64,000 bases of DNA from the NCBI GenBank assembly GCA_017429765.1, contig JAFROJ010000074.1, positions 6,649 through 70,648 on the forward strand, in the 5' to 3' direction. Position 1 is the stretch's first letter. Each line of letters opens with the position of its first letter. This DNA is from Bacteroidales bacterium (GTDB lineage: Bacteria > Bacteroidota > Bacteroidia > Bacteroidales > UBA932). The notes under the pieces were generated by a model. The model ran no database searches. It saw only the letters and a list, made by a program, of their open reading frames with translations, and was not told where the DNA came from. This document shows positions 19,469-32,284 of the stretch, one piece after another. Position numbers and translations under genes: made by a program.

Positions 19469-20917
19469 CTACATCAAACTTTTGGCTATTCCTATCACCT
19501 CCGCGGCCAGGGCCTCGGCGGCCTCGAGTGTTGGGGCCTCGGAATAGATCCTGATGATCGGCTCCGTGTTGGAGCGACGGAGGTGAACCCACTCGCGCCT
19601 GTCCTCGAAACTGATCTTGACCCCGTCCTCGAGGTTGATCTCCTCTGAGGCGTAGACTTCTTTCAGCTTATTCAGGATCTTGTCTGTCAGGCTCTTGTCG
19701 GAAAGCTCTATCTTGTTTTTGGCGATGTGGTACTCGGGATAGGTCTTCCTGAGCTCGCTGGCTTTCATTCTCTTCCTGGCGAGGTTGGAGAGGAACAGGG
19801 CGACGCCGACCATGGCGTCGCGGCCATAATGGAGGGCGGGGTAGATGACTCCTCCGTTGCCCTCGCCTCCGATCAGGGCGTTGGTAGCCCGCATCAGCGT
19901 GGTGACATTCACCTCACCGACAGCGGAGGCCTTGTAGCTTCCTCCGAAACTCTCTGTCACGTCCCGCAGGGCCCTGCTGCTGGAAAGGTTGGAGCAGGAG
20001 ACGGGAGCGTAGGGACAGGTCACCTCCTCGAGGCTGATGTCCTGGGCCTCGGCTATCCTCGCGGCCCTCTCGAAAAGATACGAGGCCACGCTGACGATTG
20101 TGTATTCCTCGCCGAAAGGCTCCCCGTCCTCCTGGATGAAGGCGAGACGGTCCACGTCGGGATCGACGGATATTCCCAGATCTGCCTTCTCCTGGACAAC
20201 AGCGGCGCTCAGGCTGGTCAGGTTGGCCGGAAGTGGCTCCGGGTTGTGGGCGAAGTCACCTGTCGGGGCGCAATTCAGGCGGACGCATTCAACCCCGAGC
20301 CTCTCGAGGAGTCTTGGCATTATTATGCCTCCGACCGAGTTGACCGCGTCAAGAACCACCTTGAAACCGGCCTCCGTGATGGACTCCACATCCACATCCG
20401 GCAGGGCCAGGACGGCGTCCAGATGCTCGTCGGTGTAGTCATGCTCGGTGACATGGCCGAGATCCTCGACCCCGGCGAACTCGAAGTCTCCCTTCCCGGC
20501 GACTTCCAGGATGGCCTCCCCCTCCTTGGCGGTGAGGAACTCGCCACGCTCGTTGAGCAGTTTCATGGCGTTCCAGTGGCGGGGATTGTGTGAGGCGGTC
20601 AGGATTATTCCACCGTCCGCGCCGGCGAAGGTGACGGCCATCTCGGTGGTCGGTGTCGACGCAAGCCCGATCTTGACCACATCGATCCCGCAGGCGACCA
20701 GAGTGCCGGTCACAAGGCTCTCCACCATTGGGCCGGAGAGCCTGGCGTCCCTTCCCACCACGACCTTGTACCTTTCCCCGTAAGGTTTCGGCTTCCTTTG
20801 GGGCAGGGTGGCGCTGTAGGCGTAGGTGAAGCTCACTATATCAACAGGAGAAAGCCCTTCACCGGGCTTTCCTCCTATGGTTCCCCGGATGCCGGAGATG
20901 GATTTGATCAGGCTCAT
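19469..20917 (-). CDS. glmM: Phosphoglucosamine mutase (Bacteroidota type)
   Basis: [19 protein letters not shown] phosphoserine motif, DPDVDR, GGEGNGG. Confidence 0.9.
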   Translation of the reverse strand: MSLIKSISGIRGTIGGKPGEGLSPVDIVSFTYAYSATLPQRKPKPYGERYKVVVGRDARLSGPMVESLVTGTLVACGIDVVKIGLASTPTTEMAVTFAGADGGIILTASHNPRHWNAMKLLNERGEFLTAKEGEAILEVAGKGDFEFAGVEDLGHVTEHDYTDEHLDAVLALPDVDVESITEAGFKVVLDAVNSVGGIIMPRLLERLGVECVRLNCAPTGDFAHNPEPLPANLTSLSAAVVQEKADLGISVDPDVDRLAFIQEDGEPFGEEYTIVSVASYLFERAARIAEAQDISLEEVTCPYAPVSCSNLSSSRALRDVTESFGGSYKASAVGEVNVTTLMRATNALIGGEGNGGVIYPALHYGRDAMVGVALFLSNLARKRMKASELRKTYPEYHIAKNKIELSDKSLTDKILNKLKEVYASEEINLEDGVKISFEDRREWVHLRRSNTEPIIRIYSEAPTLEAAEALAAEVIGIAKSLM

Positions 20918-21357
20918 CAGATCGCCAAAGCCAGCATAAGGGCGCCGGCGAGCCCGAGGATCGCGTAGAATTCAGGAAGGGCGCCGTAGATGAGAGTGTT
21001 GGTCTGGACGTCATGCCCCTGGGATATCCCGACGATACCGTTGGCGCAGACCTGTCCCTGGCGGATCGCCGAGATCATGCAGACGAGACCGACTCCTAAA
21101 CCGACCCCGAAAAGGATGGGCCCGTTGGCGGCGAAATCGAATTTGTAGATCAGCAGCCACATGAAGAAGGCCACGAAGCCGTAGATGCCCTGGGTGGCGG
21201 GAAGGGCGGTCAGGAGCAAGAAGCTGCTGGACTTCTCAGGGGCGGCCTTGAGGGCCCCCTCAGCGGCGTTGCCGGCGATGGTGGTGCCGATGGCGCTTCC
21301 TATACCCGCGAGGCTGAGCATCAGCCCGAGCCCGAGATAACCTAGAATTTCATTCAT
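20917..21357 (-). CDS. ntpK: V-type ATPase subunit K (c-ring) with Na+-binding signature
   Basis: 4 TM helices; [15 protein letters not shown] and PEFYAIL motifs. Confidence 0.93.
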
Positions 21358-21361
21358 GATG

Positions 21362-30686: not shown

Positions 30687-32249
30687 TTACAGAGGAAGAT
30701 TGTCATGTTTCTTGGCGGGGATGGTCTGCTTCTTCCCGGCGAGTTGCTCGAGGGCCCGGATGACCCTGAAACGTGTGTTCCGCGGCTCGATCACATCGTC
30801 GATGTAGCCCTTGGTCGCGGCCTGGTAGGGGTTGTTGAAGAGCTCCTCGTACTCGGCCTTCTTCTCCTGACGGATCCTCTCCTGCTCAGCGGGATCCTTC
30901 ACAGCCTTTATGTCCTTGGCGTACAGCACGTTGACAGCGCCGTCGGCTCCCATCACGGCGATCTGGGCGGAGGGCCAGGCGTAGACCAGGTCAGCCCTCA
31001 GGTGCTTGCTGCTCATCACGATGTACGAGCCTCCGTAGCTCTTGCGGAGCTCGACGGTGACCTTCGGGACAGTGGCCTCGCCGTAGGCGTAGAGGAGCTT
31101 GGCCCCGTTGGTGATGACAGCGCCGTACTCCTGCTGGGTGCCGGGAAGGAACCCGGGCACGTCGACGAGCGACACCAGGGGAATGTTGAAGGCGTCGCAG
31201 AAACGCACGAAACGGGCGCCCTTGCGCGACGCGTTGATGTCAAGCACTCCGGCCAGGGTCTTCGGCTGGTTCGCCACGATCCCGACGCTACGGCCGTTCA
31301 TGTGGGCGAAACCCACTATGATGTTCTTGGCGAAGTCCTTATGGATCTCGAAGAACTTCCCGTCGTCCACTATGCTCCCGATCACCTTGTACATGTCGTA
31401 AGGTGTGTTGGGGTTGTCGGGGATTATCTCGTTGAGGCTGTCGTCCACACGGCTGACCGGATCGTTGGTGGGGACTCTCGGGGCCTCTTCCATGTTGTTC
31501 TGGGGAATGTAGGAGAGCAACTCCTTGATCAGGCGGATTCCGTCCTCCTCGTTCTCGGCGGCGAAATGGGCCACTCCGCTCTTGGAGGCGTGGACACTAG
31601 CCCCGCCAAGCTCCTCCTGGCTGACCTCCTCCCCGAGCACACTCTTGACCACGGATGGTCCGGTGAGGAACATGTAGGAAGTGTTCTTCACCATGACCGT
31701 GAAGTCGGTGAGGGCGGGGGAGTACACGGCTCCGCCGGCGCAAGGGCCGAAAATGCCGGAGATCTGCGGCACGACACCCGAGGCGAGGATATTCCTCTCG
31801 AATATCTCACCGTAGCCGGCCAGGGAATCGACCCCCTCCTGGATCCTGGCTCCGCCCGAGTCGTTCAGGCAGATGAAAGGAGCCCCGTTCCGCGAGGCCA
31901 GGTCAAGGACCTTGCAGATCTTCTCGGACATGGTCTTGGAGAGCGAGCCTCCGGAGACCGTGAAGTCCTGCGCGGCCACATAGACGAGTCGGCCGCCGAT
32001 CGTGCCCATCCCGGTCACGACACCGTCGCCGTCGACATGATTCCGGTCCATCCCGAAATTGACGCAACGGTGACGGACAAACATGTCGAACTCCTCGAAG
32101 CTCCCCTCGTCGAGCAATAGGGCGAGCCTTTCCCTCGCCGTCATCTTGCCTTTCTCGTGCTGGGCGTCAATCCTTGCCTGACCTCCGCCCAGCTTGGCGG
32201 CTGCCCTGCGCTCAACCAGCCTCGCGATATTTTCCTTTTGAATGCTCAT
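30687..32249 (-). CDS. mmdA: Acyl-CoA carboxyltransferase / methylmalonyl-CoA decarboxylase alpha subunit
   Basis: [34 protein letters not shown] and VDVPGFLPG motifs. Confidence 0.93.
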
Positions 32250-32276
32250 ATTATCCTAAACCTTTATGGTAATTCA

Positions 32277-32284
32277 CAAATATA
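32277..32284 (-). promoter_or_regulatory. -7 box for the mmd operon
   Basis: TATATTTG on the minus strand, 27 nt upstream of mmdA. Confidence 0.75.

Follow-up and report, generated by a model that had tools for sequence, protein, structure and literature searches.

The Na+-translocating methylmalonyl-CoA decarboxylase (Mmd; MmdABCDE, EC 7.2.4.3) of Veillonella parvula and Propionigenium modestum combines a carboxyltransferase alpha subunit, a beta subunit that handles Na+ and carboxybiotin, a small carrier with an AMKM motif, and a membrane anchor of the OadG/MmdD type. In P. modestum, Mmd shares the cell with a Na+-dependent F1Fo enzyme; in this arrangement, known as decarboxylation phosphorylation, a Na+ ATP synthase draws on a Na+ gradient that comes mainly from the decarboxylase. 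Rotary enzymes of the V type can also use Na+, and that of Enterococcus hirae (NtpFIKECGABDHJ) is an ATP-driven Na+ extrusion pump. The V-ATPase of Bacteroides fragilis has Na+ residues and was proposed to be a Na+-driven ATP synthase; like every V-ATPase of the Bacteroidales type, it is biochemically uncharacterized (PMC10197588). The Bacteroidales-type operon has also been listed for Bacteroidetes (PMC2359735). We analyzed a 64,000-nt stretch (hereafter, the window) of contig JAFROJ010000074.1, from an uncultured rumen Bacteroidales bacterium, in which genes for a decarboxylase of the Mmd kind run directly into a V-ATPase operon of the Bacteroidales type. The source genome (label G000) is a metagenome-assembled genome (MAG) of 2.36 Mb, 96% complete and in 75 contigs; its host probably belongs to the GTDB family UBA932 and probably to the genus Candidatus Cryptobacteroides.

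The main point is that the locus is probably a pair of neighboring operons that fused recently, in a lineage whose 'methylmalonyl-CoA decarboxylase' has probably been repurposed. Taken whole, from two ancestrally separate neighboring operons to one probable transcription unit in this species with a repurposed decarboxylase, this reading seems to us somewhat probable. The V-ATPase gene set and its Na+ residues have already been described in B. fragilis, and the locus is a variant of known systems in which the operons are fused. Genes were named by Pfam and NCBIfam profile matches. Eleven open reading frames (ORFs), all on the minus strand, follow one another in the order mmdA, oadG (with a lamin-tail domain, LTD), mmdC, mmdB, ntpE, DUF2764, ntpA, ntpB, ntpD, ntpI, and ntpK. 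An initial annotation of the sequence had read the same run at the same places; one name has to be changed, as the gene that it called ntpC is correctly positioned and encodes a DUF2764 protein (PF10962). The features are as follows.

32314 to 32344, minus strand: intrinsic terminator after yebC, closing the upstream unit (14-pair stem, then a T run)
32277 to 32284, minus strand: Bacteroidetes -7 box TATATTTG, 35 nt before the mmdA ATG and just past the yebC terminator
30687 to 32249, minus strand: mmdA, acyl-CoA carboxyltransferase (PF01039 at 1.8e-198)
29744 to 30706, minus strand: OadG/MmdD-type membrane anchor, 320 amino acids, with an N-terminal lamin-tail domain (PF04277 at residues 200-267; PF00932 at residues 33-144)
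29298 to 29723, minus strand: mmdC, biotin carrier (PF00364; EAMKM motif)
28154 to 29296, minus strand: mmdB, Na+-translocating carboxybiotin decarboxylase beta subunit (PF03977 at 5.7e-144; TIGR01109 over its cut-off)
28108 to 28153, minus strand: mmdB-ntpE spacer of 46 bp without terminator or -7 box, a probable derived operon fusion
27499 to 28107, minus strand: ntpE, V-ATPase stator subunit E (NF002424 and NF002170, both under their cut-offs)
26891 to 27502, minus strand: DUF2764 protein, second gene of the Bacteroidales-type V-ATPase operon, in the 'C' slot (PF10962 at 5.2e-21)
25122 to 26876, minus strand: ntpA, catalytic subunit A (NF003220, 744 bits, over its cut-off; start ATG fixed at 26876)
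23810 to 25132, minus strand: ntpB, subunit B (PF00006 and PF22919)
23187 to 23807, minus strand: ntpD, central stalk subunit D (PF01813)
21362 to 23194, minus strand: ntpI, membrane stator subunit I, a-type (PF01496; NF004429)
20917 to 21357, minus strand: ntpK, four-helix rotor subunit with a complete Na+ site (PF00137)
18403 to 20917, minus strand: glmM and a namZ-like gene, tightly packed behind ntpK (Pfam names)

The first gene set (mmdA, oadG-LTD, mmdC, mmdB) is predicted to encode a biotin-dependent, Na+-translocating decarboxylase and shows the features of Mmd: its beta subunit carries the residues for Na+ and carboxybiotin, the biotinyl lysine sits on a separate carrier protein, and a small membrane anchor is encoded alongside. 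In an alignment of MmdB to Salmonella OadB (6IVA), the positions of D203, Y229, N373, G377, S382, and R389 were all conserved; we take these to be the residues marked as functionally important by OadB mutagenesis. As is usual in Bacteroidales, the genes come in the order A, anchor, C, B. Unlike in the Veillonella and P. modestum enzymes, the anchor carries an extra lamin-tail domain, and no mmdE was recognized at the locus. The best model for MmdA is TIGR01117 (800 bits, under its cut-off of 998.8), and its substrate preference is not readable from sequence. The second set (ntpE, DUF2764, A, B, D, I, K) is predicted to encode a Na+ V-ATPase of the Bacteroidales type; the operon of B. fragilis P207 matches it in all seven genes and in their order, with DUF2764 second and a duplicated four-helix K subunit bearing the E. 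hirae ligands, and it too coexists with an F-type enzyme and Nqr (PMC10197588). The E. hirae enzyme has the same ligand set, with one site per K subunit, whereas F, G, and H are missing here and DUF2764 stands in the place of C. The mmd and ntp genes are single-copy in the source genome, and all genes of the run are under purifying selection, with ratios of non-synonymous to synonymous substitution rates (dN/dS) of 0.02-0.2 at dS above 1 (0.02 for mmdB, 0.03-0.05 for mmdA, 0.02 for ntpB).

No candidate promoter for the run as a whole was seen other than the box at 32284-32277; the sole further TAnnTTTG on the minus strand from 33500 to 18000 is one at 18363. At the junction, the mmdB stop codon lies at 28154-28156 and the ntpE ATG at 28107, which fixes the spacer length at 46 bp. 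Scans for TAnnTTTG in the spacer and the final 120 nt of mmdB gave no match, the spacer showed no terminator-like site, and RNA folding of the junction was no better than that of shuffled sequence (z = -0.04). The initial annotation had noted a single promoter box before mmdA (32277) and a 46-bp gap with neither terminator nor -7 box, and the motif scans and folding agree with it on both. On this motif-level basis, co-transcription of the mmd and ntp genes in this genome is plausible, and we consider it fairly probable. The promoter would drive mmdA through ntpK and probably continue into the cell-wall genes glmM and namZ; the ntpK stop overlaps the glmM start (TGATG, 20915-20919), and namZ follows glmM by 1 bp. 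As the transcription unit would include glmM and namZ, tight packing and co-transcription say little about shared function.

The spacer has a different form in most relatives. There it spans 75-370 bp and contains first an intrinsic terminator and then, 26-64 nt ahead of the ntpE ATG, a TAnnTTTG box, the same geometry as that of the mmdA promoter in this genome (terminators were judged by eye from the sequences; a crude finder over-called short spacers). With both elements between them, as in L055 and L067, the gene sets of these relatives form two operons. Short spacers (21-64 bp) that lack both elements are shared by the window, its nearest relatives L034, L035, and L039, two further loci (L021 and L026), and a distant clade (L107-L113). 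In a tree of 58 linked loci, 29 had the promoter, 13 an insertion, and 10 the fused state, which requires at least five changes on the unrooted topology. The promoter-less junction would have originated at least 4-5 times. The window clusters with two fused loci and with L036, which retains a -7 box in a 52-bp spacer. Because terminator plus promoter is the widespread state, we infer that the fusion here is recent and derived, with its direction read from an unrooted tree; the terminator and promoter between the operons would have been deleted in this species. Co-transcription, as claimed at the outset, is thus plausible for this genome, and the fused layout is not one that relatives have kept: most have a terminator and -7 box, or inserted genes, in the spacer. 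Across relatives the locus forms a natural series, in which terminator and promoter give way to a promoter alone and then to fusion, a state reached several times over, and the series could be used to ask whether operon fusion is selected or is mere genome streamlining.

It is possible, if rather unlikely, that this genome still transcribes the two gene sets as separate units, with an unrecognized promoter lying within the spacer or the 3' end of mmdB. Relatives as a rule transcribe the sets separately, the nearest relative (L036) keeps a -7 box in a spacer nearly as short, and the scans detect only a canonical box of the sigma-A type. The window itself speaks for fusion, with no TAnnTTTG on this strand between 32277 and 18363 and with neither a terminator-like site nor a stable structure at the junction.

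The adjacency of the two gene sets is a synteny at the level of the family, old and loosely kept. Of 300 sampled genomes of the order, 233 had mmdB and 116 had ntpA. Outside the family, none of about 70 Bacteroidales genomes with both places listed had mmdB and ntp genes adjacent, the nearest pairs being 13 and 26 kb apart; in Bacteroides and these other sampled Bacteroidales the loci are unlinked, whereas here the V-ATPase abuts the decarboxylase genes and has no promoter of its own. Within the family, 67 of 81 genomes had ntpE. Of about 62 sampled genomes with both genes, 30, representing at least 17 genera, had mmdB immediately upstream of ntpE and on the same strand, and 8 further genomes had it 2-6 kb upstream. 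Among the 80 species nearest by NtpE, 34 showed direct adjacency, 4 a gap of about 600 bp, and 8 a gap of about 1.7 kb with two opposite-strand ORFs; others had metH-metF or other insertions. The genus was surveyed in 121 genomes, each at least 90% complete. Direct adjacency was observed in about 35 of 100; of the non-adjacent genomes, 13 had the genes 0.6-1.7 kb apart and 17 had them 2.7-7.6 kb apart, and the rest had them unlinked or on other contigs. Adjacency therefore extends well beyond this genome, and the counts rule out both that it is unique to this genome and that it is general in Bacteroidales. The two operons would have been neighbors since early in one Bacteroidales family, probably UBA932.

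The neighborhood also persists where the pump subunit does not. In several genomes (e.g. G269, G432, G491, G434, and G546), mmdA and mmdC lie directly next to ntpE with no linked mmdB; some genomes of this kind lack mmdB altogether and others have only a distant beta paralog. The neighborhood therefore does not depend on the pump subunit, and no other finding argues as strongly against taking adjacency to mean a sodium circuit. It is inherited synteny and no proof of coupling. Genes metH and metF were observed between the mmd genes and ntpE in genome G006 (L003:10306-14865) and in locus L078. In L078, mmdB is retained upstream of metH-metF; in G006, which is 100% complete, no OAD_beta gene was found and metH-metF occupy the place of mmdB.

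The substrate that gives the decarboxylase its name appears to be out of reach in this genus. Methylmalonyl-CoA mutase (PF01642) was not found in the source genome and was present in only 1 of the 121 genus genomes; in a family sample it was present in 70 of 80 genomes and 36 of 37 genera, and in none of the genus genomes included there. The epimerase (TIGR03081) was not found in the three genus genomes searched. The Veillonella and P. modestum enzymes differ in this respect, as the gene content of this genus lacks the mutase and epimerase that would supply (S)-methylmalonyl-CoA within the same organism. The succinate-to-propionate route is apparently lost in the genus, and because mutase and epimerase are gone the decarboxylase could not be fed from succinate. 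In two other genera (G306 and G316), the epimerase gene was seen at the head of the mmd operon.

The mmd genes have nevertheless been kept. An orthologous mmdB is retained in about 100 of the 121 genus genomes, and mmdA in 120 of the 121, including all 14 that lack any mmdB. That the mmd genes are a decaying relic of the mutase loss is ruled out by this retention and by dN/dS values of 0.02-0.05 at dS above 1. The source genome has no other PF01039 gene than mmdA, and MmdC has the only AMKM-type biotinyl domain found in it (a second PF00364 match was rejected as a biotin domain, being a lipoyl domain with a DKA motif). Biotin carboxylase (Biotin_carb_C) was not found in the source genome or in 80 of 81 family genomes, which rules out an ordinary acetyl-CoA carboxylase with MmdA as its transferase and MmdC as its carrier. 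Its absence is not special to the family and does not explain the linkage: the domain was present in 190 of 301 sampled genomes of the order and lacking in the other 111. FabD and FabF are encoded in the source genome and in G006, which lacks mmdB, and were present in all five family genomes checked for them; malonyl-CoA is therefore needed.

A route to malonyl-CoA can be drawn from the remaining gene content. The propionibacterial transcarboxylase (EC 2.1.3.1; 12S, 5S, and 1.3S components) accepts acetyl-CoA and oxaloacetate (PMC8085960), and its three components have counterparts here in MmdA, an OadA-like protein, and MmdC, respectively, all encoded in a genome in which biotin carboxylase was not found. 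The OadA/5S-like protein (594 amino acids; HMGL-like and PYC_OADA matches) is encoded on another contig (G000:C61:45523-47307; L115:5524-7308, minus strand), and its C-terminal barrel lacks the AMKM biotinyl lysine. PEPCK is present and can supply oxaloacetate. In what is the simplest and likeliest working model, the OadA-like carboxyltransferase, without a biotinyl lysine of its own, would transfer CO2 from oxaloacetate onto MmdC, and MmdA would pass it from MmdC to acetyl-CoA to yield malonyl-CoA; MmdB, where present, would decarboxylate surplus carboxybiotin and export Na+. From gene content, the complex is more likely to handle oxaloacetate-derived carboxybiotin and make malonyl-CoA than to decarboxylate methylmalonyl-CoA. 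Relative to Mmd of Veillonella and P. modestum, MmdA here is the sole acyl-CoA carboxyltransferase and is kept even without mmdB. Relative to the transcarboxylase, which is represented here by genes alone, the 5S-like gene is unlinked and the genes for the carrier and the 12S-like component sit with that for a membrane pump subunit. The malonyl-CoA model fits the retention of mmdA in the 14 genus genomes without mmdB and the placement of mmdA and mmdC beside ntpE without a linked mmdB. It also fits genome G269, where a homolog of the OadA-like protein keeps its biotinyl lysine and is followed by a paralogous oadB, the two forming a separate biotinylated oadA-oadB pair.

The V-ATPase is Na+-type by its rotor subunit. 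When NtpK was aligned to E. hirae NtpK (PDB 2BL2), L61, T64, Q65, Q110, and E139 were all conserved, in proteins of only distant overall similarity (E 3.7e-15); the Na+ ligands that the initial annotation had recognized in subunit K are thus all in place. The seven-gene operon and the full ligand set in K together place the enzyme among Bacteroidales-type Na+ V-ATPases. In the genus, ntpE was present in all 121 genomes and the F-type gamma subunit was not found in 17, and the V-ATPase may be the sole rotary ATPase in some species. Direct adjacency occurred in 5 of 12 species without the F-type enzyme and in about 35 of 100 overall, a comparison too small to be informative. The source genome itself has an F-type ATP synthase operon, as a search for one showed. 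Its c subunit aligned best to that of E. coli and has Ile, Gly, and Ala at the positions of Ilyobacter Q32, S66, and T67, which are presumably the Na+ ligands of the Ilyobacter c ring. The F-type enzyme thus looks H+-type, and on our reading of this alignment we reject the idea that it is also a Na+ enzyme. Nqr and Rnf are both encoded in the source genome, Rnf on another contig. The contig that bears the mmd-ntp run also carries the nqrA-F operon (G000:C62:1-5136), which is separated from the run by about 29 kb and lies about 1.5 kb to the left of the window, with nqrF cut by the contig end. With the F-type enzyme, Nqr, and Rnf present, Mmd is not the only possible partner of the V-ATPase, which would share a sodium circuit with MmdB, Nqr, and Rnf. 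As to direction, we lean slightly toward Na+-driven ATP synthesis: MmdB, Nqr, and Rnf are likely Na+ exporters, and a Na+-consuming synthase would close the circuit.

The opposite direction is a tentative alternative that we judge rather unlikely without setting it aside: the V-ATPase would be an ATP-driven pump extruding Na+, as in E. hirae, for homeostasis or to serve Na+ symporters in the Na+-rich rumen, and the position of the mmd genes would be energetically meaningless. The Na+ site is the same as that of the E. hirae pump, one per four-helix K subunit, and an H+-type F-ATP synthase is at hand for ATP synthesis. The V-ATPase has its own promoter in most relatives, and the neighborhood is independent of mmdB. 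However, three Na+ exporters (MmdB, Nqr, and Rnf) are already predicted, and a consumer of the gradient is apparently missing. The V-ATPase is, moreover, the enzyme found in 121 of 121 genus genomes, as against an F-type gamma subunit missing in 17. The B. fragilis authors favor a synthase, as a proposal only (PMC10197588).

The initial annotation had proposed a co-transcribed sodium circuit, in which methylmalonyl-CoA decarboxylation exports Na+ and the V-ATPase may make ATP from the gradient, as the F-type enzyme does in P. modestum; we now regard this as improbable for the source organism. A complete decarboxylase gene set with conserved Na+ residues, the Na+ ligands of NtpK, the bare spacer, and an adjacency kept in the family all suit such a circuit, and in other genera of the family that retain mutase and epimerase it is fully plausible. 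In this genus, however, mutase (1 of 121 genomes) and epimerase are lacking, and methylmalonyl-CoA decarboxylation is not borne out as the driver. Nor does adjacency hold up as evidence for such a circuit: a terminator and promoter separate the gene sets in most relatives, insertions do so in others, and the linkage outlives the loss of mmdB. As in P. modestum, a Na+ decarboxylase and a Na+ rotary ATPase are encoded in one cell. The rotary enzyme here is V-type, however, the substrate pathway is missing, and Nqr, Rnf, and substrate-level phosphorylation are available, as is an F-type synthase, such that the cell would not depend on Mmd and the decarboxylase would not be its main source of a Na+ gradient. 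Least credible is that the fused operon acts as a membrane-energized substitute for biotin carboxylase, with the V-ATPase spending ATP on Na+ export, Na+ flowing back in through a reversed MmdB that carboxylates biotin on MmdC, and MmdA making malonyl-CoA: reversal of Mmd in vitro is on record (Dimroth & Hilpert 1984, as cited in PMC13147460), but this very unlikely reading is weakened because the 14 of 121 genus genomes without mmdB keep mmdA, and G006, one of these, has FabD and FabF.

Several considerations count against the reading that we prefer, of a recent operon fusion with a repurposed decarboxylase. Motif scans are blind to a non-canonical or internal promoter and to Rho-dependent termination; the -7 motif is short, with about 1.6 chance matches expected in 13.9 kb, and its absence is weak evidence. 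Synteny over at least 17 genera, together with repeated fusions, could reflect selection for co-expression. The gene for the OadA-like protein is unlinked to the mmd cluster, and the protein scores under the NCBIfam cut-offs. The absence of mutase and biotin carboxylase rests on consistency across many genomes, the source MAG being 96% complete, and methylmalonyl-CoA or malonyl-CoA may come from other sources, such as uptake or CoA ligases.

In the rumen and hindgut, few uncultured bacteria are as abundant as Cryptobacteroides and the other members of UBA932 ('RC9 gut group'). A literature search for UBA932 or Cryptobacteroides in connection with this pathway found only community surveys. If the preferred reading is true, the annotation 'methylmalonyl-CoA decarboxylase' misleads metabolic models, and the genus should make succinate, not propionate. 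Its only biotin enzyme would serve ATP-free synthesis of malonyl-CoA and perhaps oxaloacetate-driven export of Na+. The sodium gradient may then be tied to ATP mainly through the Na+ V-ATPase, which the whole genus retains, and not through the F-type enzyme, which is dispensable.

Three smaller observations concern the genes named above. The lamin-tail domain fused to the OadG/MmdD anchor is kept across the family at 35-70% identity. The PEPCK gene of the source genome is split over two contig ends (G000:C63:33935-34681 and C64:3-794), an assembly break with no broken gene as far as is visible. Downstream of the run, glmM and namZ have the same order and strand in the closest relatives and are inverted in genome G376.

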